Origin: a virus
Strand: one strand, 5' to 3'
Virus record (IMG/VR): IMGVR_UViG_3300027749_000046
Length of the DNA: 64,000 bases
Shown: positions 32,615 to 64,000 of the stretch, one piece after another
Layout: each line of letters begins with the position of its first letter
Position numbering within the stretch: the stretch's first letter is position 1
The notes under the pieces: model-generated
Seen by the model: the letters and a program-made list of their open reading frames with translations, nothing else
Told to the model about the DNA's origin: nothing
The model's database searches: none
Program-made: the position numbers and the translations under genes

Positions 32615-32706
32615 TGGTAGGCGTGGAGGGATTCGAACCCCCTCGAGAACGGTAATCTGCCGCTGAAAGGCTTATAAGGCCTCCCTGTGTACCAACACCC
32701 ACGCCT
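32615..32706 (-). tRNA. Atypical tRNA with UAU anticodon (Ile-like acceptor, 4-nt D-loop, long variable arm)
   Basis: AGGCGTG/CACGCCT-A-CCA acceptor; GAGGC-CTTATAA-GCCTT anticodon arm; GGTTCGAATCC T-arm; 92 nt. Confidence 0.8.
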
Positions 32707-32711
32707 ATGAT

Positions 32712-32787
32712 TGGCGATCACCAAGGGACTCGAACCCCTAACCTAGAGAGTAGAAATCTCTTGCTCTTCCAGTTGAGCTAGGTGACC
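32712..32787 (-). tRNA. tRNA-Arg(UCU)
   Basis: Canonical 76-nt cloverleaf; AGAGA-TTTCTAC-TCTCT anticodon arm; CCA encoded. Confidence 0.95.
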
Positions 32788-33010: not shown

Positions 33011-33041
33011 AGTAGTCTCCTGTGTCTGTGTTTGTGTAGTG

Positions 33042-33350
33042 AGTCCGTTATTTGATAGGGTGGAACTCATACCCCAGACTTATCTTTTAAGCAGCAATTT
33101 TCATTGCGGAATAATTAATATTGTCATTATGTGCTTTTTTTGCAGATAACTTATTTATGCAGTCGTCTCGGTCCGCTTTTAACACACCTGTCGATCCTAT
33201 TTCGCCCCCATCAAAGATACATCGGGTGTTCGGAGAAACCTATTACACCATATTTGTTCCGACTATGGAGACCGATGTATCCATGGTGGAGGCGGCGGGT
33301 ACCGCCCCCGCGTCCAGTATGTCTATTCTGCTTTCGTCATCAACAACAGC
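33042..33350 (-). ncRNA. ssrA: tmRNA, circularly permuted two-piece (alphaproteobacterial type)
   Basis: Acceptor piece ends CGCCTCCACCA (33284), then an intervening hairpin, then the coding piece starting GGGGGCGAAATAGGATCGAC (33209); G3-U70 pair; tag ORF ends NDN...IAA* (33087-33143); outer ends approximate. Confidence 0.9.
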
Positions 33351-33356
33351 ATATAT

Positions 33357-33387
33357 TATTTATACCACGTTTTAGATTATTTGTCAA
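33357..33387 (-). promoter_or_regulatory. Composite promoter for the tmRNA/tRNA unit: TTGACA-17-TATAAA merged with late TATAAATA
   Basis: TTGACA at 33382-33387; TATAAATA at 33357-33364. Confidence 0.75.
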
Positions 33388-33808
33388 TAACTAAATCAGG
33401 TCCTACTACATTAATTTTAACTAGTCGAGTAATGTTGAGATCTTTGCCGCCCCAGCGAGTGTACTCACGACCGCCGTCGACAAATACGGAATTGTCTGGA
33501 CTGCCGCGATAGTCGTGACGGAATCGACTGTAGATCACGTCACCGTTGTCAGCTACTATGCCATCGAACGGCTCGGTTGCAGAGTCGGCTTTGCAGATCA
33601 TCACATCTTTATCATAGACATACATGCCGAAGTAGTTAGACATCTCAGGAGGTGGGTGCGGTTGGTAGAACACGGCGGCTGGTTGATAGCTCCACCCGCC
33701 GTCTTTCGTCTTGAGACTGGAGTCACAGACATACTTGGCGCGATACGTCTCCTCGATCTTCTCGATAGACTCTTTAGGAAAGACGATAGACTCATTTAGG
33801 ATCTTCAT
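33377..33808 (-). CDS. Conserved hypothetical protein
   Basis: 143 aa; YSRFRHDY...VDGGREY motif. Confidence 0.75.
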   Translation of the reverse strand: MKILNESIVFPKESIEKIEETYRAKYVCDSSLKTKDGGWSYQPAAVFYQPHPPPEMSNYFGMYVYDKDVMICKADSATEPFDGIVADNGDVIYSRFRHDYRGSPDNSVFVDGGREYTRWGGKDLNITRLVKINVVGPDLVIDK

Positions 33809-43864: not shown

Positions 43865-43940
43865 TGGTGGACCCGGCAGGACTCGAACCTGCAACCAGAC
43901 CGTTATGAGCGGCCGGCTCTAACCATTGAGCTACAGGTCC
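43865..43940 (-). tRNA. tRNA-Ile2(CAU) (lysidine type; could be miscalled as Met)
   Basis: GGACCTGTAGCTCAATGGTTAGAGCCGGCCGCTCATAACGGTCTGG...CCACCA; closely resembles alphaproteobacterial Ile2 sequences as I recall them. Confidence 0.9.
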
Positions 43941-48888: not shown

Positions 48889-49593
48889 TTATAGTTCTAG
48901 TGAGTCCCGAAGTGAGGGGAAGTATTGTGTTATCTGGTACCACGCGTCTGTTGCTATCGCCCTGTGCTCTTTCTGCGTGCCGCTAGCCATGCGTAGCTCG
49001 CAGTAGTGTATCCAACTTCTAAGAGAACCAGCCATATAAAGACGAGAGACAGTAAGGCCTTCTGGCAGAACTGCACGAGCTTGTTCTTTTGCAATACCAT
49101 TACGAATTGCCCATTCATATTCTTTTTGTGCATATTCAATTACTATCTTTTGACGCTCATTCCAACCGTGTTTGAGCTCTGGATCGTCTTTAACTTCAAT
49201 CGAGTTCTGTCTGTTTTTTGGATCTTGCAAACGGGCCTCACGAGTGACGAACCCGAGGTCGCTGGTCGGATCTGCATAGCGCTGACTGAACTCCTGGAAT
49301 GAGAATGAACGATGACGTAGGATCTGACGAGCGATGTCGCGAGTCGTATTTATCTCCATGGTAATGTGAACCATCTCAAATGGAGACCAGTGCTTGTTCT
49401 TTATGAGATACTTGAGGAGCTTCTGAGAGGTCTCCCTGTTGTTCTGATTGGATGGGTTGGATACCCGCGCGACGTAGGCTATGAAGTCGTCTACGTCCAT
49501 ATTGAGTGGTCTAGTTAAAGCAATGATATCAGCTGTGTTCATCTTGTCTCTCTTGAATAGTTCTAATTGCAAGCTCACTAAGCCCTCCTCCAC
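48889..49593 (-). CDS. thyX: Flavin-dependent thymidylate synthase
   Basis: HWSPFE, RHRSFSFQEFSQRY, EQARAVLP; real start probably MNTADII (about 49542). Confidence 0.95.
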   Translation of the reverse strand: MEEGLVSLQLELFKRDKMNTADIIALTRPLNMDVDDFIAYVARVSNPSNQNNRETSQKLLKYLIKNKHWSPFEMVHITMEINTTRDIARQILRHRSFSFQEFSQRYADPTSDLGFVTREARLQDPKNRQNSIEVKDDPELKHGWNERQKIVIEYAQKEYEWAIRNGIAKEQARAVLPEGLTVSRLYMAGSLRSWIHYCELRMASGTQKEHRAIATDAWYQITQYFPSLRDSLEL

Positions 49594-50612
49594 CTCTGCA
49601 GCGCCATCTTAGCCTGCAGGTCCCTGTAAGTATTCTGGTCTATTATATACCGAATGAAGTCGGATGTCAACCCCGCCATCACCATGTCGTTGATGTCCTT
49701 GTGCTCGAGGTTCTCAGGCCAGATGCAGACACCGTAGCCCTGCATGATCGCCTTGTCGATCTTCTTTATCGTATCGACCGACCTAGGCTCGTTGTCGTAC
49801 ACCACTACCAAGGAAGACTTATGTACGGATAGAAGAGTACCGAGAGCAGAAACAAGATCACCGCCAGCAGTAGCAATACTATTAGGGATAAACATAGAAT
49901 CAATTGGACCCTCCATCACGTAAGTCGTCTTATCGAAGTTGACGGTGTCGAGCCCATAGACCTTGGGCTGCGTGTCATCTACCACTATTGTTATATATTT
50001 GGTCTTGGACTTAGGGTTCATAGAGCGCCCCTGGAACGCATGCATCTTCTGGTCTCTATTTAAGAATGGAATAAGGAGTCTGGTCTCATCGCGCTCTAGT
50101 ACAGAACCCTCGAACTTACCAGGTATGATCTCATTGGACCATGCAAAGAAGTTAGTGCACTTGAACAGCTTTGCATGATATGGATTAGGGATATTACGAT
50201 CTACAACGTACTTCTTCATACTGTCGTCAGGAGACAGCTGACTGATCTTCTTGAGGCCCTTGAACGGGCTGGACTTCATGAAAACTGGAGGCTTCATCTT
50301 CTTGACAAAGTCCTCGAGATCTACCTGCTGAGGTGACTTCTCCTCGCGCATCTTCTCCATAACGTACTCGTTGTAGAGAGACTGGTCTATAGACCTGATG
50401 AAGTTGGGAACGTTGGTGGATACGCTGCAGTTGAAGCAGTGGTACGTGAGTCTACCCTTGGTCGTGTAGATATTGCCTCTGGCCTTGCGCTTGTCAGTCT
50501 GACTGTCGCCGCATACTGGACACGAGAAGTTGTACCTGCCAGATCCCTTCCGCTTGAAGTTCCTCAGTCTACCGGATACCAATCCTATGTACTTCTCTTC
50601 TAACCAACTCAT
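49578..50612 (-). CDS. gp61: DNA primase gp61
   Basis: CPVCGDS...CFNC zinc finger; EGPIDS, DNEPR, KDINDM. Confidence 0.95.
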   Translation of the reverse strand: MSWLEEKYIGLVSGRLRNFKRKGSGRYNFSCPVCGDSQTDKRKARGNIYTTKGRLTYHCFNCSVSTNVPNFIRSIDQSLYNEYVMEKMREEKSPQQVDLEDFVKKMKPPVFMKSSPFKGLKKISQLSPDDSMKKYVVDRNIPNPYHAKLFKCTNFFAWSNEIIPGKFEGSVLERDETRLLIPFLNRDQKMHAFQGRSMNPKSKTKYITIVVDDTQPKVYGLDTVNFDKTTYVMEGPIDSMFIPNSIATAGGDLVSALGTLLSVHKSSLVVVYDNEPRSVDTIKKIDKAIMQGYGVCIWPENLEHKDINDMVMAGLTSDFIRYIIDQNTYRDLQAKMALQRWRRA

Positions 50613-52024: not shown

Positions 52025-53020
52025 TCAGGAGTCTAGGAAGATAACGTCTTCCGCATCAGCAGTCGTAGCAGGAGCTGCACCAGCTTGAATACCGGTCTGA
52101 GCACCAAGAGATCCCATGGCAACTAGAACTTCATAGTGTACACGTCCGGCGCGGCCGCCAGAACCTTCTGTACGAAGAACCCAACCGGCATGCGCGACGC
52201 CATTGTTCTTTCCGCCGCCGACTGTTACGTCACCAACTGCTGTATCTCCTTGAATCGTATGTACCTCACCGGTAGCCGTAGTTCTAGCGTCGGTGATGTC
52301 AATATTAGCTCCACCCTTTGCTGTCGCGAGGGCGATAGTAGTGGTGTTTGCGAATGAGACATAGTAGTACGTATTACCCGAGAGAGGAGCAATTGGCGTA
52401 TTGCTCGTAGGAACTGCGTAGTACAGTCTATCGCCAACCTGCCACTTTGAGTTGGCGGTTGATACTGCGATTGTGTCAGTGGTATTGCTGAATCCGACTG
52501 AGTTGGCCGTGATGTTGATAGCAGCAGGAGCCGCTATAGTGATATTTGGAGGGCTGATGTATCCAGAGCCAGCAGTTGAGATGTTAAGCTGCGTGATCTT
52601 ACCTGCAAGCGTAGTTGAGTTTGCGAAGGCGTTTACTACACCAGACGATCCACCCTGCACTACTGTTACTGTAACCGCAGCGTTCGCGCCGTATCCCGAA
52701 CCAGAAGATACTACGATGGCTGTAGCGAGACCACCTGAGTTTATTCCGGCCTCGATAACATCTACGCCAAAGGCTCCAACAGCCTTACCTGGTATGAATG
52801 CGCTCTGTGTAGTATTGCCAAACATAGTGGAATCTACGGCAGCGCGTGAGCCCGCCGAGGTATTACCATAGTGAGCATTTGCCCCATCGACGCGTACTGA
52901 TGTATTTCCGCCGCCAGCCTTGACGAGCGTGTTTATTCCAATCGGACAACCATTAGATGTCTCCTTGGTAGTTGTACTATTGGCAGTGACCGCCTGGTCG
53001 TTTCTACCCCATTGTGCCAT
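52025..53020 (-). CDS. Virion structural protein
   Basis: MAQWG start; GSGY repeats; HAGWVLRTEGSGGRAGRVHYEVLVAM. Confidence 0.75.
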   Translation of the reverse strand: MAQWGRNDQAVTANSTTTKETSNGCPIGINTLVKAGGGNTSVRVDGANAHYGNTSAGSRAAVDSTMFGNTTQSAFIPGKAVGAFGVDVIEAGINSGGLATAIVVSSGSGYGANAAVTVTVVQGGSSGVVNAFANSTTLAGKITQLNISTAGSGYISPPNITIAAPAAINITANSVGFSNTTDTIAVSTANSKWQVGDRLYYAVPTSNTPIAPLSGNTYYYVSFANTTTIALATAKGGANIDITDARTTATGEVHTIQGDTAVGDVTVGGGKNNGVAHAGWVLRTEGSGGRAGRVHYEVLVAMGSLGAQTGIQAGAAPATTADAEDVIFLDS

Positions 53021-53054
53021 CTTAGTGTTCTCCTTGTAAGAATAAGCTTTTGAT

Positions 53055-53062
53055 TATTTATT
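53055..53062 (-). promoter_or_regulatory. Late promoter variant (AATAAATA)
   Basis: Upstream of 52025..53020. Confidence 0.5.
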
Positions 53063-53282
53063 CATCATCGAGGGTTAACATATCGAGAAGATACTGTGAT
53101 TTCTTACCTATTGGCTTTACTTTACCATTGACAATCAACACGTGATCTTCAGAAGCACTCGAGCTAGAATTCTCGCGATTCTTGATGAAGTCGCTTGTAT
53201 TCTTTGCTCGAGCCTGCTGCTCTATTAGTCTTGCCATCTCGTCTGCAGAGATGTTATTCGCACTACCGATAGATATAGCCAT
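53058..53282 (-). CDS. Hypothetical protein
   Basis: 74-aa ORF in the operon. Confidence 0.6.
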   Translation of the reverse strand: MAISIGSANNISADEMARLIEQQARAKNTSDFIKNRENSSSSASEDHVLIVNGKVKPIGKKSQYLLDMLTLDDE

Positions 53283-53284
53283 TT

Positions 53285-56200
53285 TTATCTCTTGCTACCG
53301 CCTAGAGATACCCTAGGCTTAGGCGCGTACGACTTGCCGGTGATCATCGACTTAAATCCGCGCTCTACTGCGTCCTTCATCTCAGCGCCCTGTGCCGCGT
53401 GATAGCTGCCTAGGAACTTCTGAACGTGCTTCAGGTGAACCTTATGCTTCTCGCCGTCGATATCTAGAGTGAGGTGACCGTTGTTGTCTGGCTTCTTGTC
53501 GCTGATCTGAGCTACGAGGTTAGCCCTATTCTCCGATGGAGTATCACCGTCTTCCGACTTTGCCTTCTTAGGACGACCTTTGCCGCGCTTGGCTTCTTCT
53601 TCCTCGATGAACTTTGCGAGAAGAGAGATAGAATTGTGTGACTCGTTCGCTAGTTTTTCAAAATCGCTCTGTGACATTGATTGTCCCTTATTTGCCCTGT
53701 ACTTGGCGGTACCGCCTGTTGTGTATTTACTGGTGTCTGAACTTGGATACGTGTCTGTCATCTGCGGAGTATTAACAGACTTACCCTTTACCATATTTAA
53801 TTTATTAGCGGCATACTGTCTCTCTGCCGCAGCTAGAGTATCACCGTCAGAATCTTCTTTTACAATTCTTAAGTTTTCTTTAGGAAATTGAGATGATCTG
53901 TCACCATGATATACTGTATAGTATAGTTTTTTACTTCCAGGTATACCACGATGAATTTTACCAACAGTACCTTTTTTACCGTGGAGGCTACTGCCAGGAT
54001 TATGTATTGTAACTTCATTGCCTAATTTGAATGCTGATTTAATTGCTTCGTCGAGAGTTTCTTCTTTATGAAGCAGCCTGAAGTCTTTAGCGTCAATCTT
54101 ACCGTTATGATTCTTGTCGAGCTTATACTGCTTACCGACGAGCTTCTTCTCATCGCTGATGTCATAGCGAGCGGTGCTGTTGGTTGGGTTCTCTCCGCTC
54201 TGGTCGCCTTTCTCGCCGGCTTGATTGCCGATAGTCGGCCTGTTCATCGGGAGCTTCATTGACTTCTTTGCCTCAGCGAGAGAAGCAAAGTGAGCTAGCT
54301 CGTCCGCCGTGAAGATAATGCTCTCATTTGTATCCGTATCGTCTTCAGCGTCAGGATATATATCTTTGGCTTTTGCTCTATATTCAGGTTTTTTCTTGAA
54401 ATAATCTTTGACATCACCAGCAGTGCGACCAGGATCTTGTTTATCTCTATTTTGATCTTTATTAACTAAGCCTGCAACTGTCGTTGAAAGTCTTGGCTTA
54501 GTTTGAGGGGCAACAGACGGGGTAGTATCTGGCTTAGATGCTGGCTTAGAGTCCGGAACTTCAGATGGGCGAGTACCCGATGATACACCCGGATTCTTTG
54601 GCTCAGCTGGCTTAGAGTCTGGAACTTCAGATGGACGAGTACCTGACGATACACCTGGATTAGCTGGCTCGTCTACGCTCTTTGGATTGCTGACGTACTT
54701 CTCGCCGGCGACGTTTGTCTGGTATTCTTTACCTTTATATGTGAACTTACCACCTGCGCCGCCGGCTTTCTTACGAGCTGAAGCGAATGCACTGCCGAAG
54801 CTGTCGTCCTCATGCATGAGGTTGATCTTCTCGATAAGATCTAGCTCGCCTGCGCCGAGAACCGACTCGATGGTATTCATGCCGGTATCGGCGCCGCCGT
54901 ATCCCTTGCCAGCCGGTGGGTTCATACCGCCTTGGTTTGAATCAATATTGGCGTTCTTGTCCTTCGGCTTCTTCGGAGGAAGAGGCACGCTGCTCGATGC
55001 GGTATCTTTTGGTCTTACTGGTGGTAGTGGAACTGTTGCCATCTTTGCATCTTCCTTATAAAAACTTAGGGTTTTGTTAATGTCTTTTCCAAATCTCTTG
55101 CGATCTTCTGGTGAGATGATAGTATTAAAGTAGTCTGAAGCGTCTTTTCTGGTTGCTGTTCCAGCTTTGCTCTTGTCTAGTAGATCTTTAGTAGCAGCAG
55201 AAGCAGCTTGTGCCTGCTCAGGTGTCTTACCTGCAGACTTACTGACCGCGCTCATTACATCGGGCATCTTATCTAGAGCGGAAGATAGCTTCTTTACTGG
55301 ATCTTGATCGTCTTGACTGTCATTATTATCACCGGCGTGAAGGTTCATCTTGCGCGTAGAGCTCTGCTTCTCGAGCTCGCGACGACGGCTGAGTGCCGCT
55401 CTCATCTTTGATTGAATACCAGTGCCTATGTTTCCGAAGTGAATTTCCTGCTCGTCGATCTCAGAGTCCTCTTTGTTTAGTCTCTTTGCGGCCTGAAGGG
55501 ATACCCTAACGTTCTTCTTCAAGTCAGCTGGATCGTAATTTCTGTTATTGAGAACTCCGCCGTCACCCATAGAGGACATAATGTGGTGGTCGGCACGGGC
55601 CTGTACTTGCTTGAGAGCGTTCTTTCCAGCTGGAGTATTGCCGACTTCGTCGAGCTGCTCAGCTTCTTCTTTCTGTATCTCCTTGTTGAAGATACCCTGG
55701 TCCTTGAAGATCTTCTTGCTCTTTGCAGGCGACTTGTCTGTCTCGGTATCTCTATCGACTGTCTTTGGATGGATATCAATCTCAGTTACCCCACCCTTAA
55801 CAGCGCGAGCTGAATGAAGACTTTGATCGCCGCCCTTAACTTCATTGACTCTCGTGTTGATTTGGCTAATTTCTTCTTTTGAAAAGATTTTTCTATTGAA
55901 GTTACCAAAGAATTTATCGACTGGGCCCTGATCATTTGGACCAATACCTATTTTTGAAGCACCCTGTGGTATAGAAACTGGATCTGAAGTGCTTGAAGTG
56001 GGTAGCGATACAGGAACTGAAGCCTGAGATGTTTTCTTAGCAAGCATACTAGCTTTATCTTTATCTAACATTCCCTGGATGCGATCGCCCTGTGCTTTAA
56101 AATCAGCACCAAAATTATCGTCTTCTTTTTCTAGTTTTCTTGTATTGGCTTCATTTACAGACATCGGTCCATCATTTTCTGAACCAAGATCTCTATATTT

Positions 56201-56569
56201 TTGTGTGGTGCTTCTGTGAAATTTTTCTGCATCAGATGCATTCTTAAATTTGAACGCAACGCCCTTATCAGAGCTATAGTGATATTCCCCACCGTGATTT
56301 TTTACGTGTTTGTGGAACTCATCAGACTTTAATTTTTCTGCGCCTTTTTTATCATATACTTTAACATGAACTGAGTGAATCGTTGACTGCTCATCGATGA
56401 TCTTTACCTTGATCTCGGCCTGCTTGGCGAGCTTAGACAACTCATCGGTAGGAGCGACGTCGTCAGGACGAGCTACGTTCTTTACTTTCTCACGAGCCTT
56501 GGTGTTGCGATCTACAGCCGCAGCCTCCATGACTCTCCTGATCTGAGCTTCTACCGATGTGTACTTCAT
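53285..56569 (-). CDS. Large modular charged protein, probable internal-head polyprotein
   Basis: 1094 aa of short modules separated by hydrophobic-x-E motifs. Confidence 0.75.
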   Translation of the reverse strand: MKYTSVEAQIRRVMEAAAVDRNTKAREKVKNVARPDDVAPTDELSKLAKQAEIKVKIIDEQSTIHSVHVKVYDKKGAEKLKSDEFHKHVKNHGGEYHYSSDKGVAFKFKNASDAEKFHRSTTQKYRDLGSENDGPMSVNEANTRKLEKEDDNFGADFKAQGDRIQGMLDKDKASMLAKKTSQASVPVSLPTSSTSDPVSIPQGASKIGIGPNDQGPVDKFFGNFNRKIFSKEEISQINTRVNEVKGGDQSLHSARAVKGGVTEIDIHPKTVDRDTETDKSPAKSKKIFKDQGIFNKEIQKEEAEQLDEVGNTPAGKNALKQVQARADHHIMSSMGDGGVLNNRNYDPADLKKNVRVSLQAAKRLNKEDSEIDEQEIHFGNIGTGIQSKMRAALSRRRELEKQSSTRKMNLHAGDNNDSQDDQDPVKKLSSALDKMPDVMSAVSKSAGKTPEQAQAASAATKDLLDKSKAGTATRKDASDYFNTIISPEDRKRFGKDINKTLSFYKEDAKMATVPLPPVRPKDTASSSVPLPPKKPKDKNANIDSNQGGMNPPAGKGYGGADTGMNTIESVLGAGELDLIEKINLMHEDDSFGSAFASARKKAGGAGGKFTYKGKEYQTNVAGEKYVSNPKSVDEPANPGVSSGTRPSEVPDSKPAEPKNPGVSSGTRPSEVPDSKPASKPDTTPSVAPQTKPRLSTTVAGLVNKDQNRDKQDPGRTAGDVKDYFKKKPEYRAKAKDIYPDAEDDTDTNESIIFTADELAHFASLAEAKKSMKLPMNRPTIGNQAGEKGDQSGENPTNSTARYDISDEKKLVGKQYKLDKNHNGKIDAKDFRLLHKEETLDEAIKSAFKLGNEVTIHNPGSSLHGKKGTVGKIHRGIPGSKKLYYTVYHGDRSSQFPKENLRIVKEDSDGDTLAAAERQYAANKLNMVKGKSVNTPQMTDTYPSSDTSKYTTGGTAKYRANKGQSMSQSDFEKLANESHNSISLLAKFIEEEEAKRGKGRPKKAKSEDGDTPSENRANLVAQISDKKPDNNGHLTLDIDGEKHKVHLKHVQKFLGSYHAAQGAEMKDAVERGFKSMITGKSYAPKPRVSLGGSKR
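54539..54670 (-). repeat. Tandem 66-bp coding duplication (EPxNPGVSSGTRPSEVPDSKPA x2)
   Basis: Two copies visible at both protein and DNA level, with mostly synonymous differences. Confidence 0.9.
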
Positions 56570-56573
56570 CTCT

Positions 56574-57011
56574 TTATGCCTTTAATATTGACTTAAGCAT
56601 CCAGTCGTGCTTATAGTGTCTGTCTACTCTGTCTTGCAAGAAATTGGCGAGGCCAACAGCGTTCTCTTTCTCTGCCATCTTCTGGGCTTCCTTGAGCAAC
56701 TCTATTACAGCGATGTTGTCAGACTGGAGCTTAGATATCATAGACATAGCGGGAGGTATGTTGGTCTCGTCTTTTACTATAGATAGATCTGTATAGCGCA
56801 CGAACGAGCCGGGAGCGTAAGATCCAAGAGTTCTGATCTCTTCTGCAATAGTGTCTACAGAATCGTGAATTTCCTCGTACAGATCATTCAGGAATGAATG
56901 ATACTGCGGAAAGTTAGGACCCTCTACATTCCAGTGAAAATAGTGCGCCTTTAGGTACAGCGCAAAAACGCTGGCCAGCACCACCTTCATCTTCTCAACT
57001 AGTTCATTCAT
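56574..57011 (-). CDS. dps: Dps / ferritin-like protein
   Basis: KAHYFHWNVEGPNFPQYH...DTIAEEIRTLG...HYKHDWML. Confidence 0.92.
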   Translation of the reverse strand: MNELVEKMKVVLASVFALYLKAHYFHWNVEGPNFPQYHSFLNDLYEEIHDSVDTIAEEIRTLGSYAPGSFVRYTDLSIVKDETNIPPAMSMISKLQSDNIAVIELLKEAQKMAEKENAVGLANFLQDRVDRHYKHDWMLKSILKA

Positions 57012-57012
57012 A

Positions 57013-57246
57013 TTAATCAGCCTTCTTTTTTCTTCCGCGCTTTACTTTTTCTACTACTTCTTTAACTTCTTCTGCTACAGCACCTACTACGACGGTCTCG
57101 ATATTAGGAACTTCTTCTTTTACTTTTGCTACCACCTCGGCGGCGACTTCTTTAACTGCCTCTTCTGCGGTCTCTTTCTTAGTGAGCATCTTATAGACCA
57201 CCGCGATTAAAACTGCAATACCTAATCCTACAATAATAAAATCCAT
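57013..57246 (-). CDS. Small membrane-anchored protein
   Basis: N-terminal TM; E/V/K-rich; KRGRKKK tail. Confidence 0.7.
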   Translation of the reverse strand: MDFIIVGLGIAVLIAVVYKMLTKKETAEEAVKEVAAEVVAKVKEEVPNIETVVVGAVAEEVKEVVEKVKRGRKKKAD

Positions 57247-57257
57247 TTTTACCTCCG

Positions 57258-57428
57258 TTATGAACCACCATCTCCACCGCCAGAGCTTCCGCTCTTTCCG
57301 GGTGGATGCTTTTCTATCTTCCCCGATGCCATGCGAATGGCAACCATTGGTGCAGACACTTCTTTTCTCTTTCCAGTCGTGCCTTGGGGTACACTCAATT
57401 CTCTAAGAAGCTCACTGAACTTCTTCAT
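57258..57428 (-). CDS. Small protein with capsid-targeting-like N-terminus (56 aa, not in the ORF track)
   Basis: MKKFSELLRE-LSVPQG...; ATGA-coupled. Confidence 0.65.
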   Translation of the reverse strand: MKKFSELLRELSVPQGTTGKRKEVSAPMVAIRMASGKIEKHPPGKSGSSGGGDGGS

Positions 57429-57841
57429 CTATTTAGTATTCTTCTCATCGTATCAACGTGATCTCTGTCTTTCTGCTTCTCTGGCTCAGGGAGCTCAGAG
57501 TAAGGCACGTGTTGAGATGCGTTGTAGTCAGCTTTAGGGTTTCTCTTCATCCACTCTTTGTGCACGTGATCGGCTGCAGCCTCTGTGTCTTTGCCGTGCT
57601 TACGTAGAGCTACAAGCGCGGCCTTGCCAGCCTCAATATTCTCTTTCTGCCAATCTGGATGAAGCTTATTAAATGGAACATTGATGTTACCCTCGGTACC
57701 GTCGCTGTTCTTCTTTATTCTCTCTTTTCCAGTATTCTCAGGGTCAAAAGTACTACGCCACTTGTCATGTTGAATTGCAGCAAACTGTCTCACGGCGTCT
57801 CTACCTCTTCCCTCGATAATATACTCAATAAAGCTTTTCAT
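57425..57841 (-). CDS. RyR-repeat domain protein with capsid-targeting-like N-terminus
   Basis: Two A..HxxW...PF/YxxL repeats, the second ending VPYSELPEPEKQKDRD. Confidence 0.7.
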   Translation of the reverse strand: MKSFIEYIIEGRGRDAVRQFAAIQHDKWRSTFDPENTGKERIKKNSDGTEGNINVPFNKLHPDWQKENIEAGKAALVALRKHGKDTEAAADHVHKEWMKRNPKADYNASQHVPYSELPEPEKQKDRDHVDTMRRILNR

Positions 57842-57842
57842 T

Positions 57843-58748
57843 TTAGCAGTCCCAAGCTCTGCGCGACCAGTAGTTAGCCGACGTCTTATTCGTTAGATTA
57901 CCCTGACCGCTTGAGCGTGCGCAGTACGAGCGCTTGCGAGCCGGAATATTCTTCTTAATGCTCAGGGTCTTATCGCCGAAGTTAACTTTCTTTACGTTGC
58001 CGGTCGTTGGGTCCTTGACGAACACTTTCGACTTCTTTACGTCACCCTTCATTGGCTTATTTAGAGGCACCTCACGACCTTGGTATTTCGCTTCATTTAT
58101 AGCGCATGGGCACGTTCCCGAGGAGCACTCGTTAAGCTCATACGACTCGCGAACTGTCTTCTTGATGGTAGAGATCTTCTTGCCGTGCTGACCTGGAGTT
58201 GCATTCTTATAGATTCTGACTGCCGAGTCTGTGGCGTCGAACCTCGAGTCTGAATCGTCTGGATTTGTCGACTGGAGCTCAGACGTCTCTGGGGTCTTGA
58301 AGTGCTTTGAGCTCTTGTGGATAGATCTGGCTGTATCGAGCGACTCATTCTGAGCTGCCCTGAAGTCGGCTGCAGTGGGACGGCCTTTCTCTCCAGGTCT
58401 GCGCATGTGCTCTCCAGAACCGCGCTTGATGCGCTCTTGCTTAGCGTGGATATTATCCCAGAGGCCTCTTATTTCTTGTAGATCTTTATCCATGTGCGCT
58501 GCTGCTCCGCCTGCTATAAATGAATTTACTCTGTTGAATGCATACTGCTCAGGAGACTCATTGAGTACCTGATCTGTATAATAGCTATCTATGCCACGAG
58601 TATAGACCTCTTCTAGAGTGTCTATATTATAACCACTTTTCTTTGATTTTTTGTATAGTGACAGCCTTATGGCGTCAGTAACTACGGCACTCCCGCGACT
58701 TTGCTCGGCAAAGTCTAGCTGAGGACTAGGGAGATATTTCTTTACCAT
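57843..58748 (-). CDS. Modular hypothetical protein (probable internal head protein)
   Basis: QYAFNRVNSF module, GLWDNIHAK module and AKYQGR...SANYWS module, separated by x-x-E sites. Confidence 0.75.
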   Translation of the reverse strand: MVKKYLPSPQLDFAEQSRGSAVVTDAIRLSLYKKSKKSGYNIDTLEEVYTRGIDSYYTDQVLNESPEQYAFNRVNSFIAGGAAAHMDKDLQEIRGLWDNIHAKQERIKRGSGEHMRRPGEKGRPTAADFRAAQNESLDTARSIHKSSKHFKTPETSELQSTNPDDSDSRFDATDSAVRIYKNATPGQHGKKISTIKKTVRESYELNECSSGTCPCAINEAKYQGREVPLNKPMKGDVKKSKVFVKDPTTGNVKKVNFGDKTLSIKKNIPARKRSYCARSSGQGNLTNKTSANYWSRRAWDC

Positions 58749-58811
58749 TGGAGTTTCCCTTGGGCTTATCCATGAACATTGCGCAGGATTGCCGTAGCCT
58801 TACTGCATCGC
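58672..58811 (-). ncRNA. Structured RNA element of unknown class
   Basis: Long closing stem CAGTAA/CTACGGCA/TCCTGCG pairs with CGCGGGA/TGCCGTAG/TTACTG; begins just after TATAAATA. Confidence 0.55.
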
Positions 58812-58816
58812 ATGTT

Positions 58817-58824
58817 TATTTATA
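58817..58824 (-). promoter_or_regulatory. T4-type late promoter TATAAATA
   Basis: Exact consensus, intergenic. Confidence 0.8.
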
Positions 58825-58845
58825 ATTTTTAATTATTTGCCGTGT

Positions 58846-59463
58846 TTAAGCCTTATGGTGTGTTATACGTACAGATCCATCTGACATGTGCTGAACGTGA
58901 TGTCCATGGAACTCAACATTCGGGTGCTTCTTCTTGAGTGCCAGCATGCCGTTGATATTATCTATTGAATCATCGTAGAGGTGCACCCTCTTGTGGCCGT
59001 GCCGGCTGATGGCGTCTGATATGATCTTGGCCTTAGCGGCCGCGGGCTTAACGCCGGTTATATTACCTGCGCGACGCACGTGAATCTTGCCTATGTCTAC
59101 GCCGTAGGACTTCCACTTGTCTGCGAACTTCTTCTTGTCGTCGAAGTCAGATCGCGCCGTGAGTATCTCGACATGTCCGCCGTTCCTGTGTATTGCCTTC
59201 ATCTTGCCGAGCATGCTGCGGATAGGCTTTGCTCCCTGCGCGAACTTCTTTGCCGACTTAAACTCAGAGAAGTCGTAGCTGTGTCCAGGAGGCAGCTTGT
59301 GATCGTTGAACTCAGATGAATTCAGGCTCTGTACTGTCTTACCGCGTGGGTCTTTTACGTGCACCCTGACGTTAGACCCGCTGGTGTGCATGAGTGTGTC
59401 ATCTACGTCGAAGTAGTGGATGCTGTGCTGGCTCTCGGTTAAGAATAAACCAAAAGACTTCAT
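58846..59463 (-). CDS. HAD-superfamily phosphatase with capsid-targeting-like N-terminus
   Basis: FDVDDTL (motif I), ILTAR (II), K (III), YDDS (IV). Confidence 0.8.
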   Translation of the reverse strand: MKSFGLFLTESQHSIHYFDVDDTLMHTSGSNVRVHVKDPRGKTVQSLNSSEFNDHKLPPGHSYDFSEFKSAKKFAQGAKPIRSMLGKMKAIHRNGGHVEILTARSDFDDKKKFADKWKSYGVDIGKIHVRRAGNITGVKPAAAKAKIISDAISRHGHKRVHLYDDSIDNINGMLALKKKHPNVEFHGHHVQHMSDGSVRITHHKA

Positions 59464-60107
59464 GTCTTGCTTTTCTTAGGCTTTGGCGTCATACCAGTAG
59501 CAACATCGTTATACATCTCTCTCGCGTGACTATCTGACATAGTAGACGGTACACCCTGACGAAATCCGTAGTAGTCGTTGTTGCGAACGTGCTCTCTCAT
59601 CTTAGATGCCGACATGCCACCGACACCCTCTGAGTCTGGATCTCTATCACCAGAAGAGACATACTCTATCTTCTTGAAGTTAAAGGGAATATTACCAGAC
59701 TTGTCTGCCTGACCGTTGTAGCGAGATATGAGCTTCTGATACTCAGGCAGTCTGTCGCTGCCTGCCACGAACACTAGGTGATTGTGTCCAGCTTGATGAA
59801 GTCTAGTGAGGTGGTGAATCAATGTCGGCTGATCGGGAGTAGCCGCAGTTATGTTAGCTCCAGGAAATGCTCTTCTTGCGTGCTTTACTTTCTGCTGAGA
59901 AGATAAAGGATTCTTATCTGGGTCTTGAGATCCAGATAAGACTATCTCGTGATGAGCCTTTCGTCTAGCAGCTTCTTCCATGACTTTATTTACTAGGGCC
60001 TCGTGACCAGATGTCGGAGGATTCATCCTACCGAAAGAGAACACCACCGGGTTCATCTTAGGACGACCTACGACACCCTCGGATATAAAGCGAATAAAGC
60101 TCTTCAT
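59460..60107 (-). CDS. HxGH-type (cytidylyltransferase-like) nucleotidyltransferase
   Basis: FGRMNPPTSGH, KNPL, VAGSDR, MSASKMR. Confidence 0.88.
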   Translation of the reverse strand: MKSFIRFISEGVVGRPKMNPVVFSFGRMNPPTSGHEALVNKVMEEAARRKAHHEIVLSGSQDPDKNPLSSQQKVKHARRAFPGANITAATPDQPTLIHHLTRLHQAGHNHLVFVAGSDRLPEYQKLISRYNGQADKSGNIPFNFKKIEYVSSGDRDPDSEGVGGMSASKMREHVRNNDYYGFRQGVPSTMSDSHAREMYNDVATGMTPKPKKSKT

Positions 60108-61375
60108 CAGCTGCCTCCTGCTATTCTACCCATGCCGGCGAGGTTGGCCGCGGCGAATCCCTCTGGGCTCTGGTCGACGAGCTTCTGCATGTTGCCTTGT
60201 GGGTCAACGTGTACGTAACCCTCGTGGCCTGTTGCTCTGTTTCCTATAGACTGACGAGTAGGAGAGTTTGCGTCGAGTGCTCTAACGAGTACGTTCTTTG
60301 CCCTGCTGAGGTGTCCCTCGAGATCGATAGCCTTGCCGAAGTGCTCTCTGTTGTTAGCTACCGACTGGAGCATCTCTCCGTATCTGTCCATTACTCTCTT
60401 CTTAGCAGCTTCAGTCTTAACTTTAGCTGCCTCTTTGGCTGCAGCTTCACTGAGGTGCTTTGTATATCCCTCGACGCTCGGTTTCTCTGGCTTCTCACCG
60501 GGCTGCATAGTGGCGCTTTTTCTAATAACGCCGTTGAGATAAGTCTCTAGTGGTATCTCATGACCGCGCATGGCCTCTAGAGCTTCCGGCTTCATGCTGC
60601 GATAGACTCTCTTGGCGCGTTCCTTGTGATCTTCATACTCACGCTGCATCTCTGGCGTATAGTTATCGGGATTGATCTTTACCCTAGGATCTACATCATG
60701 AACGTCGGGATGCTGCTGGAAGTCCTCGCGATTAACGTCAGGCGTCGCAGTCATGTTCTCTAGGCTGTTGCCCTTGTATCTCGTGTGAGTTACTATACCG
60801 AACTTAGAGCGCAGTGCTTTCTGAGCCTCGCCTGAGTTCTTAGGCAGCTTGTATCTCACCGTGTTTGGCTGGAAAGAAACCTCGTCGCCGTTTGTCTCAA
60901 TATCTTTCTTTCCAGAGTGCATCGCGTCTCCCTGATAGACTTGGTCTGGATAGCGATTACCAATTTTCTTTGGCTTAGGCATGATCTTAGGCAAGTTCTC
61001 AAGTGCGGCCTTGAGCTTCTCAACTAGTCCTGGGGCATGCCCGTGATTTCTCTCGATATCTTCTGGCGTGTAGTTGATCTTTGGATTCTTATTGAAGGCA
61101 GACTTACTGGCTACAAAGAACCTACCTGTCTCTGGGTGATGCCCATAGACTATAGATGGAGCGCCATCGTACTTAGTTGTAAGCGAGTGCCTGCCGCCTC
61201 TTGGCTTCTTACCTTTGACAATCGACTCAACTGCATCTAGTGAGTCAGATGCTCTAGAAACACCCTCATTACCGCCAGTTATAGGCAGGCGATTTAAGTG
61301 CTCTAGGTGCTTTAGCTTTTGACCCTCAGGAGAAGCTTCTTCTTGTTCTAATATAAATCTCTTAAAACTAATCAT
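60107..61375 (-). CDS. Putative ATP-dependent ligase-fold protein (DUF6267-like)
   Basis: HLEHL, TKYDG (KxDG), YQGD, EGYV, KLVD. Confidence 0.65.
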   Translation of the reverse strand: MISFKRFILEQEEASPEGQKLKHLEHLNRLPITGGNEGVSRASDSLDAVESIVKGKKPRGGRHSLTTKYDGAPSIVYGHHPETGRFFVASKSAFNKNPKINYTPEDIERNHGHAPGLVEKLKAALENLPKIMPKPKKIGNRYPDQVYQGDAMHSGKKDIETNGDEVSFQPNTVRYKLPKNSGEAQKALRSKFGIVTHTRYKGNSLENMTATPDVNREDFQQHPDVHDVDPRVKINPDNYTPEMQREYEDHKERAKRVYRSMKPEALEAMRGHEIPLETYLNGVIRKSATMQPGEKPEKPSVEGYTKHLSEAAAKEAAKVKTEAAKKRVMDRYGEMLQSVANNREHFGKAIDLEGHLSRAKNVLVRALDANSPTRQSIGNRATGHEGYVHVDPQGNMQKLVDQSPEGFAAANLAGMGRIAGGS

Positions 61376-62544
61376 CTACCTAGACTTTCTTCATCTGAAC
61401 TAAATTGAGAACCGCCGTGCATTCCTGAAGAAGGTAGCTTTACTTTATTTTTAGTGGGAAGCACCGATGACTTATTAACAACTGGCTTTCTTGTTAGATA
61501 AGGCGCTTGAGTAGTAGAGTTAAATCCCTTTGTAGGGCCGCTCCCCTTTTTAATTCCCTGTGTTAACACGGGAGTAAAGTCAGACTCACCTTTTCTTCTA
61601 CCTTCTATCTTTACACTAATACCTCCGCTATGTGGAGCAGTCCTGAGCTCTTCATAATCATTGAGAGTATTGCGTGCGTCTTGAACGTCATTCATGTGAT
61701 GAGATAAATCTACACCATTTCTTCCAACTTGGCCGTGATATCTAAAATGCTGAAAGGTAGTCTTAGGTGCAACGATATCATTAACATAATTTTTGAGATC
61801 ATTAGTATTCTTTTTTGCAAGACTCTTTGTGAGAGCACCAGCTACGTTTCTTTGAACTTCACCAGCAGACTTTTCAGCGTCAGCGGCTGCTTGTCTTTCT
61901 TTAGGATTCTGACTGTCTCTAAATCTCTTAAAGGTATCATGACTGTCGATACCAAGCTCTTTAAGACGCTTTGCGTGTCTATCTCTGTGGCTAACCAGAT
62001 CTGATTCATTTGCTCCGGACATTCTGGCTAGTGTTTCAAATCCATTATTTCTAAGATTAGGTGTCTTCATAGTACCGTATTTTAAGCTTATACCTACAGG
62101 TCCCTTGTTAGTCTGAAGCATAACATCGGCATCACTGTTTGTATCTTTCTTGCCGGTAAAGCTCTCGTGATCTGAAGGCTGAGAAGTCCAAGCACCGTGA
62201 TGAATGGTATGATGTCCAGCTGCAGCAAGTTGCTGTCTTATATTGGCCGCGGCCTGTGCAGAATGCTTTGCGATCTGATCATACATACCAGGATATCTTG
62301 CATCTAATTCTGTCTTGATCTTATCGTGGATATCGCTTGGTGTCTTGCCCTCTTCATCTCTGAAATGCTGCAGCATTTCATTAGGTCCACCGTGTTTTGG
62401 GTGAGTTCCACTGTGGAGATGCGATCCAGTTAAGATCTCAAATAGCTTACCTTTAGCATCGTTTAAGTTAAAACTTTTCTCTTTTTCTTTCTTTGGCTTT
62501 ATTACTCTTGCCTCAGATAGAATAAATTGCTTAAATGGTATCAT
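61372..62544 (-). CDS. Putative PD-(D/E)XK-like nuclease with capsid-targeting-like N-terminus
   Basis: GKLFE...DADVML...GISLK. Confidence 0.55.
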   Translation of the reverse strand: MIPFKQFILSEARVIKPKKEKEKSFNLNDAKGKLFEILTGSHLHSGTHPKHGGPNEMLQHFRDEEGKTPSDIHDKIKTELDARYPGMYDQIAKHSAQAAANIRQQLAAAGHHTIHHGAWTSQPSDHESFTGKKDTNSDADVMLQTNKGPVGISLKYGTMKTPNLRNNGFETLARMSGANESDLVSHRDRHAKRLKELGIDSHDTFKRFRDSQNPKERQAAADAEKSAGEVQRNVAGALTKSLAKKNTNDLKNYVNDIVAPKTTFQHFRYHGQVGRNGVDLSHHMNDVQDARNTLNDYEELRTAPHSGGISVKIEGRRKGESDFTPVLTQGIKKGSGPTKGFNSTTQAPYLTRKPVVNKSSVLPTKNKVKLPSSGMHGGSQFSSDEESLGR

Positions 62545-62578
62545 GTCGTAAGCCTCATGGAAGTTAGATTGTTCTCAA

Positions 62579-62586
62579 TATTTATA
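62579..62586 (-). promoter_or_regulatory. T4-type late promoter TATAAATA
   Basis: Exact consensus, upstream of the 62544 operon. Confidence 0.8.
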
Positions 62587-62590
62587 TAAT

Positions 62591-62620
62591 AAAAAAGGGA
62601 AGCCCCTAAGAGCTTCCCTT
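62591..62620 (-). terminator. Intrinsic terminator
   Basis: GGGAAGCTC-TTAG-GGGCTTCCC-TTTTTT. Confidence 0.85.
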
Positions 62621-62740
62621 TACGACGTGGACAGGAGGAACCCCACCTACCGTATACTGGCGACCTGTCAATTCCAATCCTCGCGGCTTGCCTCTTGTGC
62701 TGCAGGCACAAACGCGTCGAAGTATTCACAAGATATGTGC
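62621..62740 (-). ncRNA. Candidate small structured RNA (own late promoter and terminator)
   Basis: Multi-stem fold: CGACG/CGTCG, TTGTGC/GCACAA, GACAGG/CCTGTC; no credible ORF. Confidence 0.6.
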
Positions 62741-62745
62741 ATACA

Positions 62746-62955
62746 TTATTTATAACCAGAAACAGTATTTTCAAACTTTTCTACAAATATTTTTTTCAAT
62801 ACAAAAGACGGAGTCCAGCCATCAAAAGCCCCACCTAGATTCAAGAAGCGACAGCGTGTTTTCATTTCTTTTTCTACACCAAAGGCAACGATATGGTCCG
62901 TTGACTTCTCGACGATAGCGTACGTGTTCTTCTTTTGAATAACTTTATAGTTCAT
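62746..62955 (-). CDS. Conserved small protein downstream of gp41
   Basis: LNLGGAFDGWTPSF motif; TAATG-coupled to gp41. Confidence 0.75.
   Translation of the reverse strand: MNYKVIQKKNTYAIVEKSTDHIVAFGVEKEMKTRCRFLNLGGAFDGWTPSFVLKKIFVEKFENTVSGYK
62747..62754 (-). promoter_or_regulatory. T4-type late promoter TATAAATA
   Basis: Exact consensus, overlapping the stop of 62746..62955. Confidence 0.75.
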
Positions 62956-64000
62956 TACTTAAACCCCGCAAATTTAGCTTTGTCAAACTTCTTACCCTTC
63001 TTGCCTCTCTCTTTATCCTCGTCGCCGAAACCGGTAGAGTCAAATACCGGGCCGTCTAGAAGATCAGACTGAGAAGACTGCTCTGTGTCGTACAGTCTCA
63101 TCCTAGACCTGTCGATACCAATCACGAACCTCCTGTTCATTGCCGGATCATTATAGCGATTCTTGAGCTGCTTTACCATGAGCTGATTTAAGCCCTGCAG
63201 CTCTTCAGTGGAGATAAGTGCGAACATGAAGTCGGCCGTTGCCGGAAGACCAAATGACTCGGATGTGTCCTCGAGACCGACATCAGAGCTGGAGTAGCCG
63301 GTACGAGTAGTCTGAGTTGCAGACATAATCGGAACGTTGAACTCGACGGCTAGGCCGCGGAGCTCCTCGGCGATGGCCTTGATGTAGGTGTACGAGTTTA
63401 CGTTAGCACTGAACTTAAGTCGAGAAGACATGCAGATATTAAGGTAGTCGATATAGATAATATCCGGCGTGAAGTTCTTCTTGAGCTTGAGCTCGTTGAG
63501 TAGATGCCTGAAGTTGGCAGAGCCAGCTGAGGCAGTTGGGTACTCCTTGATGATCAGCTTGCCGACCGTCTTAGACCTTACCTTCTCTACTTTCTTGTCG
63601 TATAGATCCCTTGGTAGCAGCGAGAGCTCGTCCATCGTCACATTGAGGAGGTTTGCGTCAATACGCTTGGCGATCTCCTCCTCGGCCATTTCCATAGTGA
63701 TGTAGAGCACTCGCTGCCCCTTGGTTAGGTTACCCGCAGCGCAGTGGCCCATGAAGAGCGACTTGCCGACGCCAGTGCCCGCGAGTGCAATGTTGAGCGT
63801 CTTGTTGGGTAACCCGCCGTTCGTGATCTGATTGAAGTAATCAAGATCGAACGGAACTCTGTTTAGTTTTTGGTGGTAGAACTCATATCGACTATCGGCG
63901 TCTTCTAGGAAGTCGTGACCGATATGAGTGTCGAAGCTGACGCCGAGTGCGTCGCTCAAGATCTGCGGGATAGCTCCAGCAGACTGCTTTCCAGTCTTGT
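62955..64000 (-). CDS. gp41: Replicative DNA helicase gp41 (partial; 5' end outside the window)
   Basis: AGTGVGKS, YITMEMAEE, IDYLNIC, SATQTTR, DTSESFGLPATAD, QLKNRY. Confidence 0.97.
   Translation of the reverse strand, partial: KTGKQSAGAIPQILSDALGVSFDTHIGHDFLEDADSRYEFYHQKLNRVPFDLDYFNQITNGGLPNKTLNIALAGTGVGKSLFMGHCAAGNLTKGQRVLYITMEMAEEEIAKRIDANLLNVTMDELSLLPRDLYDKKVEKVRSKTVGKLIIKEYPTASAGSANFRHLLNELKLKKNFTPDIIYIDYLNICMSSRLKFSANVNSYTYIKAIAEELRGLAVEFNVPIMSATQTTRTGYSSSDVGLEDTSESFGLPATADFMFALISTEELQGLNQLMVKQLKNRYNDPAMNRRFVIGIDRSRMRLYDTEQSSQSDLLDGPVFDSTGFGDEDKERGKKGKKFDKAKFAGFK

Follow-up and report, generated by a model that had tools for sequence, protein, structure and literature searches.

The DNA considered here is a 64,000-nucleotide stretch of the IMG/VR virus record IMGVR_UViG_3300027749_000046 (hereafter the window), part of a T4-like myovirus genome, in which six minus-strand genes at 62544-57258 begin with one short peptide pattern, M-x-x-F-x-x-[FYL]-[IL]-x-E, four of them in its strict form and two as close variants. 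We propose, with a probability that we would put at roughly 70%, that this decapeptide is a capsid targeting sequence (CTS) of the T4 type and that the proteins bearing it are packaged into the head of this phage and relieved of their leaders by cleavage. The tagged proteins probably travel inside the virion and enter the host together with the DNA, the step of delivery into the host, taken over by analogy, being somewhat less probable than packaging and cleavage. The original prediction had called the leader capsid-targeting-like, and this description is backed by the agreement with four positions of the T4 CTS, by the inheritance of the leader polypeptide by polypeptide among relatives, by [LI]-x-E sequences at the joints between protein modules, and by the virion proteome of cyanophage S-CREM2.

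All six open reading frames (ORFs) named in the original prediction, with the starts and N-termini quoted there, were found to be exact and to lie on the minus strand (62544, 390 amino acids (aa); 61375, 422 aa; 60107, 215 aa; 59463, 205 aa; 57841, 138 aa; 57428, 56 aa). Position 4 of the leader is F in every one of them and position 7 is F, Y or L; position 8 is I or L and position 10 is E in five, the E of the 390-aa protein standing at position 11. From amino-acid composition the strict motif would be expected 0.013 times among the ~79 ORFs of the window. A scan of the kind that had been suggested as a check, with a loose regular expression applied to every start codon in the six frames of the 64 kb, brought up no other plausible gene, the five additional matches being internal starts or short antisense ORFs. 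The Ser, Phe, Ile, Leu and Glu codons of the six leaders vary synonymously, so that selection appears to conserve the peptide and not an RNA element. Behind the leader the bodies are unrelated folds, as had been claimed and as family, structure and motif searches agree, and the tagged proteins all have isoelectric points (pI) of 9.1-10.2, compared with 5.5 for the untagged Dps-like protein of the same operon. In the AlphaFold models of the 390- and 422-aa proteins the leader forms a short helix followed by a low-confidence linker. The cassette itself is larger than had been described: its six genes stand, and to them are to be added a 301-aa protein with a long variant of the leader and a 1094-aa protein in the same late operon (Table 1).

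The T4 sequence with which the leaders had been compared, MKTYQEFIAE, is correct and starts both ipII and ipIII in NC_000866; ipI of the same genome has a 19-residue leader that begins MKTFKEF and ends I-T-E. Mutational work on the T4 CTS assigns targeting mainly to residues 4 and 7 and processing to residues 8 and 10 (PMC9026906). The leaders of 85 non-redundant related ORFs give the consensus M-[KLIT]-[STN]-F-[KS]-x-[FY]-[LI]-x-E, position 4 being F in 71/85, position 7 F or Y in 76/85 and position 8 L, I or V in 85/85, with the E at position 10 being fixed in this set by the search pattern. This consensus agrees with the T4 CTS at all four mapped positions and has in common with it a preference for K at position 2 and for T or S at position 3. 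When five T4-like genomes were searched with a DNA pattern for the motif, 15 matches were obtained vs 1 for the reversed control, those in T4 itself being ipII, ipIII and gene 61.1. The last of these, a hypothetical gene (54 aa; NC_000866 18966-19130, minus strand), starts MKTFKEFIKE, a perfect CTS-like sequence whose first seven residues are those of ipI, and it lies between genes 41 and 61, the interval that holds the cassette of the window; its body is acidic and of low complexity (pI 5.0).

How the leader is inherited was followed in relatives, the DUF6267 protein of the cassette (422 aa) having gathered 80 loci at 40-50% identity in a scan of IMG/VR. Nearly all DUF6267 orthologues in those loci begin with the leader, a feature preserved across dozens of related contigs. 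The HAD phosphatase (205 aa) has it in most orthologues as well, and in the RyR-like family of the 138-aa protein, with 342 homologues, 48 of the 120 listed match the leader pattern, most of the others being shifted variants by eye. Many relatives have DUF6267 fused to the HIGH-motif transferase in proteins of 600-710 aa with one leader and a plain acidic linker; stand-alone transferase genes have a leader of their own, 8-10 residues before the first strand. As we read these arrangements, the leader belongs to the polypeptide and not to the domain.

Sequences of the form [LI]-x-E recur at places where a protease of the gp21 family might be expected to cut. The peptide starting LSVP that forms the body of the 56-aa protein is fused, in two contigs, to the end of a 138-aa tagged protein, and there the joint reads L-N-E and then LSVP; in the free-standing forms LSVP is preceded by I-K-E, L-R-E, I-D-E or I-S-E, always [LI]-x-E. 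Likewise, the middle and C-terminal modules of the 301-aa protein are separate genes in relatives, and its joints L-Q-E and I-N-E (after residues 92 and 219) stand where those separate genes end their leaders (V-I-V-E, V-I-L-E, L-E-E); one relative's version of the 301-aa protein starts closer to the standard leader. Processing by a gp21-type protease would leave just such a pattern, with a constant mature end behind [LI]-x-E and a varying sequence before it. Contigs G001 and G002, the two largest related ones, encode a gp21-family protease (PF03420), and one is annotated in S-CREM2. G001 (IMGVR_UViG_3300032093_000012), among near-complete relatives the closest, has two Peptidase_S77 matches, at 143687-144124 and 97-525 with 138 and 103 bits, of which the second lies at the contig end and could be either a paralogous gene or the product of a terminal repeat in the assembly.

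Experimental evidence on tagged proteins in particles is available for a relative, S-CREM2, for which 52 proteins were identified by mass spectrometry in CsCl-purified virions (PMC10665884). We scanned all called ORFs of its genome (OR473000) for the motif and crossed the outcome with the published virion list. Among these ORFs, gp6, gp13, gp136 and gp154 (the transferase) have the strict motif, and 4/4 are in the virion list vs 46/208 of the others (Fisher p 0.0028). The kinase gp14, with the motif behind a GTG start, and the nuclease gp12, with a longer leader ending F-M-A-E, are both in the list too, and the only non-structural proteins present there are the tagged ones. The S-CREM2 homologue of DUF6267 (58890-59777), a shorter protein of 295 aa encoded in the tail-fibre region, starts without a leader and is missing from the virion list, a contrast that is a single case in which absence from a proteome counts as weak evidence. 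In a second cyanophage proteome, that of S-SCSM2R (23 proteins), none of these families is listed, which we take as uninformative. Kinases have reportedly been seen also among the virion proteins of the cyanophages S-CRM01 and S-TIM5.

Transcription of the tagged genes is likely to be late, judging from T4-type late promoter boxes and an upstream terminator. The cassette is on the minus strand between gene 41 (62955-63998) and gene 61 (49578-50612), and two exact TATAAATA boxes head two operons of overlapping or abutting genes, so that the idea of a late promoter for each of the six genes does not hold. The first operon consists of four overlapping or abutting genes in the order 390, 422, 215 and 205 aa, and the second of genes for 301, 138, 56, 77, 145 and 1094 aa. 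A strong intrinsic terminator stands immediately before the first box, and the cassette would by this be shielded from gene 41 transcription. The expected link between motif and late promoters was also seen in a relative: a whole-genome census of G001 (99% complete) found three tagged genes among 232 ORFs, distributed over two operons that each begin behind a TATAAATA box, at -25 and -27, against a baseline of 22/232 ORFs with a TATAAATA box within 90 nt. In S-CREM2, gp6, the gp15-gp12 operon and gp154 are each behind TATAAATA.

Some further observations concern the same region. A third TATAAATA box (62754-62747, minus strand) overlaps the stop of a 69-aa ORF downstream of gene 41, and the terminator (62621-62594) follows ~125 nt past it; the two could delimit a short late unit with only a 24-codon ORF. 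Rfam gave no match in the cassette or in the 62594-62754 stretch. One lake-water metatranscriptome run contains 17 contigs of at least 99% identity across 53000-64000, including pieces that bridge the junction of the 390- and 422-aa genes and the second promoter region; these come from an RNA library possibly containing DNA and give neither timing nor level of expression.

The original prediction had assigned functions to the six tagged proteins, and most of these assignments hold at the level of fold or motif, namely the nuclease-like, the ligase-like, the nucleotidyltransferase and the phosphatase proteins, while the micropeptide is a conserved, real gene; the RyR assignment is weaker, being based on Pfam matches below threshold and the name of an Atlas cluster. 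Sequence searches of the PDB returned nothing for four cassette proteins (single-sequence) and nothing for the 390-aa and HAD families (profile). The AlphaFold model of the 390-aa protein (predicted local distance difference test score, pLDDT, 87.7) matches HinP1I (2fkc_A) with Z 10.8 over 211 residues at a root-mean-square deviation (rmsd) of 4.3 and MspI with Z 9.2, the next unrelated structural row having only Z 5.5. Its motif S137-D138 ... S153-x-K155 falls at the places of the catalytic residues of HinP1I and MspI, and D138, D140 and K155 are conserved. The middle position of the D ... (E/Q/N)-x-K triad, Gln in HinP1I and Asn in MspI, is Ser153 here, and the nuclease activity that the model suggests is putative. 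The family has no Pfam or PHROG match; F4 and E11 of its leader are near-invariant in 34 homologues.

Most members of the 390-aa family (window 61372-61440) close with a C-terminal tail, H-G-G-x-x-[FW]-x-x-P-x-E, which is found also on the HAD phosphatase orthologues of some contigs (L013-L015, L023 ~7930-8004; L016 ~7940-7999), making it a second peptide common to unrelated bodies. That it might simply be part of the DNA just upstream of the DUF6267 gene was considered and rejected, most loci carrying other tails at that place. T4 Alt has a C-terminal propeptide.

The 422-aa protein belongs to DUF6267 (PF19782, E 8e-75), and its AlphaFold model (pLDDT 87.6) matches RNA or DNA ligases in every one of the top 47 structural rows, at Z 8.8-6.0 over ~185 residues with rmsd 3.6-4.7, among them the Naegleria RNA ligase (Z 8.8), REL1 (8.4), T4 Rnl2 (8.1) and T4 Rnl1 (7.8). 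K68, D70 and G71 of its K-x-D-G motif are invariant in 18 orthologues. A ligase activity is putative; with no sequence match to any PDB chain, the protein is a distant member of the ligase superfamily at best. For the 215-aa protein PF01467 scores 22.4 bits vs a cut-off of 21 and phrog_3041 matches with E 4e-56, only the general superfamily model being passed; an identity as NMNAT was rejected (TIGR00482, 13.5 bits vs an equivalog cut-off of 112). It is the orthologue of S-CREM2 gp154 at 29% identity. The 205-aa protein has all four HAD motifs, D19-x-D21-x-T23, T102, K144 and D164-D165, invariant in 13 orthologues; it matches phrog_415 with E 1e-9 and, by structure, viral proteins of the HAD IIIB-like kind in the Atlas (TM 0.90), and it has no Pfam match.

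In the second operon, separate thirds of the 301-aa protein match PHROGs 28338, 16028 and 7595. The 138-aa protein reaches 16.8 bits with PF02026 vs a gathering threshold of 27.4 and 20 with DUF7701 vs 27; its nearest Atlas cluster is named 'RyR domain-containing protein' (score 0.92, 99% viral), and some of its homologues carry PF02026 in precomputed tables. The 56-aa protein is 70-84% identical in 11 related ORFs. The 145-aa protein is below the cut-offs of the Dps equivalogs, and a Dps-like gene is kept at the corresponding place in 39 related ORFs. In the 1094-aa protein [LIV]-x-E occurs 13 times, for the first time after residue 15. It also has a tandem repeat of a ~19-residue Pro/Ser-rich unit and a weak EF-hand-like match, and only scattered modules are common to it and the large proteins at the corresponding position in relatives; its N-terminus, with V-M-E after residue 15, resembles the conserved start of those proteins.

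Table 1. Features of the cassette and its boundaries, in the order of transcription (window coordinates)
Feature	Position	Strand	Remarks
Intrinsic terminator, 12-bp stem and T-run	62594..62621	-	Stops transcripts that arrive from the direction of gene 41 (helicase)
T4-type late promoter box TATAAATA, first	62579..62586	-	35 nt before the first cassette gene
390-aa protein, HinP1I/MspI-like restriction-endonuclease fold	61372..62544	-	11-residue leader MIPFKQFILSE (62544-62512)
422-aa DUF6267 protein, RNA/DNA-ligase nucleotidyltransferase fold	60107..61375	-	10-residue leader MISFKRFILE (61375-61346)
215-aa HIGH-motif nucleotidyltransferase ('cytidyltransferase' in phage records)	59460..60107	-	10-residue leader MKSFIRFISE (60107-60078)
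205-aa HAD-superfamily phosphatase	58846..59463	-	10-residue leader MKSFGLFLTE (59463-59434)
Late promoter box TATAAATA, second	58817..58824	-	Heads the second operon
301-aa modular basic protein	57843..58748	-	15-residue leader variant ending F-A-E
138-aa RyR-like / DUF7701-like protein	57425..57841	-	10-residue leader MKSFIEYIIE (57841-57812)
56-aa protein	57258..57428	-	10-residue leader MKKFSELLRE and 46-residue basic peptide starting LSVP
77-aa protein, N-terminal hydrophobic helix, no family	57013..57246	-	No leader; same late operon
145-aa Dps/ferritin-like protein, acidic	56574..57011	-	No leader; PF00210 E 4e-23; same operon
1094-aa basic, repeat-rich protein	53285..56569	-	End of the late operon

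Let us consider what else the leader might mean. The tagged proteins might enter the prohead and yet not be injected, serving as parts of the core, as DNA-condensing material, or as enzymes that act on the packaged DNA, for example by nick sealing. T4 core proteins are targeted by the same route as the internal proteins (PMC5694885), all tagged proteins here are strongly basic, like DNA-binding internal proteins, and the same operon encodes a DNA-binding protein of the Dps kind as well as a small basic peptide. However, the invariant catalytic motifs, K-x-D-G in the ligase fold and the four HAD motifs, suggest that these are enzymes and not packing material, relatives differ in which genes are tagged, unlike essential assembly parts, and T4 proteins loaded via the CTS are ejected (PMC9026906), so that we consider a role confined to the head unlikely. 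Even less probable, in our view, is that the leader has some other role altogether, as an amphipathic helix for a membrane or a complex, a stability signal, or a translation-start context, with the enzymes acting late in the cell and their presence in virions being carry-over. The S-CREM2 authors do caution about contamination (PMC10665884), and the metatranscriptome contigs would be compatible with action in the cell, although they say only that the region may be transcribed. None of these roles, however, would lead one to expect agreement with the T4 CTS at exactly the four positions mapped by function; the differing codons of the leaders argue against an RNA element; the recurrence of Glu and [LI] at internal module joints is left unexplained by a start context or a membrane helix; and in S-CREM2 detection tracks the tag and not the enzyme family.

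A different question is whether the cargo forms one preloaded RNA-repair pathway of the T4 Pnkp/Rnl1 type, in which the phosphatase heals, the ligase seals and the transferase rebuilds ends, undoing the work of host anticodon nucleases. The ligase fold is nearest to RNA ligases, the phosphatase matches a PHROG annotated as polynucleotide kinase, and ligase and transferase are often fused. Against this, the cassette has no kinase domain, its first gene has the fold of a DNA restriction endonuclease, the phosphatase resembles HAD IIIB acid phosphatases and not the Pnkp domain, and the members are gained and lost independently, G001 having only the ligase-like protein and the transferase of these in tagged form. 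We regard such a pathway as unlikely too; the tagged gene set differs between phages, which argues against any one fixed pathway. In the reading that we favour, the folds of the cargo point to enzymes that would act on nucleic acids or nucleotides as soon as infection begins, most likely for counter-defence or the repair of ends. PADLOC defence models gave zero matches.

Several points weigh against packaging and delivery by a T4-type tag as we propose them. Several RyR-like homologues have shifted or degenerate leaders, and in two related contigs (L031, L033) the transferase orthologue comes without one. The S-CREM2 authors themselves point to possible co-purification of abundant late proteins with the virions, and only 3 peptides of the transferase were detected there (PMC10665884). 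The case for this phage is built on sequence and models, the head module of the phage, with protease, scaffold and major capsid protein, lying outside the 64-kb window, and injection is an assumption carried over from the T4 internal proteins and Alt. The presence of tagged proteins in virions is likewise read from the proteomics of a relative, S-CREM2, and it is by analogy that we infer packaging, cleavage and injection for the phage of the window.

If the leader is nevertheless a CTS, the following sequence of events may be envisaged. The cassette would be transcribed late from its two TATAAATA promoters, and the N-terminal helix of each tagged polypeptide, through the aromatic residues at positions 4 and 7, would bind the scaffolding core of the assembling prohead, so that the polypeptide becomes enclosed. 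A prohead protease of the gp21 family would then cut after the Glu of [IL]-x-E, at residue 10 or 11 in the leaders, and likewise where [LI]-x-E stands between modules in the 301-aa protein. Once mature, the basic proteins would stay with the DNA in the filled head, exit with it at infection, and be present in the host before any phage gene is expressed.

Compared with the T4 internal proteins IPI, IPII and IPIII and their CTS, the cassette has in common the ten-residue N-terminal tag with aromatic residues at 4 and 7, I or L at 8 and Glu at 10, the unrelated basic bodies behind one tag, and the existence of longer leader variants, of 19 residues in IPI and 15 in the 301-aa protein here. T4 cargo, in contrast, is small and non-enzymatic, IPI being a restriction inhibitor, whereas here enzyme folds in proteins of 138-422 aa and a peptide would be loaded. 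Unlike the T-evens, this phage belongs to the cyanophage/pelagiphage-like branch of the T4-like phages, and for it packaging and cleavage are predicted. Enzyme cargo and additional cuts at [LI]-x-E have a precedent in T4 Alt, the head-packaged and injected ADP-ribosyltransferase, which is packaged via a short N-terminal propeptide cut at I-T-E and is further cut at L-T-E (PMC5694885); it is an enzyme of another class, however, and its propeptide, of six residues, does not follow the decapeptide motif. The polyvalent and MuF-fused head effectors (Iyer, Aravind et al.; PMC9503650) are also head-preloaded enzymes acting before gene expression, but they are giant multidomain proteins fused to MuF or portal-type domains, whereas here we see small separate proteins, each with what appears to be a cleavable decapeptide of its own.

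As for the phage itself, the T4-like genes in the window include baseplate and neck genes, for gp48-, gp53- and gp5-like proteins, gp4 and gp2, and also those for gp32, the helicase (gene 41) and the primase (gene 61), as well as td and nrdAB. By protein, at ~30% identity, the closest isolates all belong to the Kyanoviridae: Pelagibacter phage HTVC008M, Methylophilales phage Melnitz, phage C48C1 and cyanophages. In the DNA-level search no database record aligned with the window over more than about 100 bases; freshwater metagenomes contain window DNA. A permuted tmRNA of alpha-proteobacterial type is encoded at 33038-33391 on the minus strand (Rfam RF01849, 94 bits; RF04321, 93 bits; ARAGORN gives a tag peptide), adjoining tRNA-Ile(TAT) and tRNA-Arg(TCT) (32615-32787), with tRNA-Met further on (43865-43940); the type of the tmRNA hints that the host may be an alphaproteobacterium.

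The tag and its logic are classic T4 biology, and a review has noted that the CTS may allow T4-like phages to load varied proteins (PMC9026906). Literature searches that combined the capsid targeting sequence with cyanophages or with marine phages of the T4-like group brought up only T4 reviews, and no paper linking the tag to the cyanophage/pelagiphage branch or to its reported virion enzymes, most subscription journals lying outside the search. A further comparison is with the non-structural proteins of cyanophage virions: the S-CREM2 set of cytidylyltransferase, APH-like kinase and nuclease carries the same leader, but the S-CREM2 paper gives no loading mechanism, remarking on how often cyanophage virions have turned out to contain cytidylyltransferases and kinases and leaving carriage or contamination possible (PMC10665884), whereas the leader supplies a mechanism and a prediction. 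One may go further and suppose, as a tentative and on balance doubtful generalization, that Kyanoviridae and their freshwater relatives use the decapeptide and [LI]-x-E sites as a general plug-in loading system in which any tagged gene becomes cargo, and that the phage of the window delivers a toolkit of restriction-type nuclease, ligase, nucleotidyltransferase and phosphatase that would act on nucleic acids of the host or the phage before transcription, in the first seconds.

Should this be true, the injected proteome of uncultured phages could be read straight from sequence via the tag. The tag would explain the enzymes in cyanophage virion preparations (cytidylyltransferases, kinases, nucleases) that have been doubted as contaminants, and would give a sequence rule for the particle-borne proteins of uncultured T4-like phages, those of this branch being among the most abundant in oceans and lakes. 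It could also be used to load foreign proteins into the heads of phages other than coliphages, as the T4 tag already does in its own. Finally, the tag marks two unstudied enzyme families, DUF6267 and the HinP1I-like proteins, as candidate first-contact effectors of these phages.

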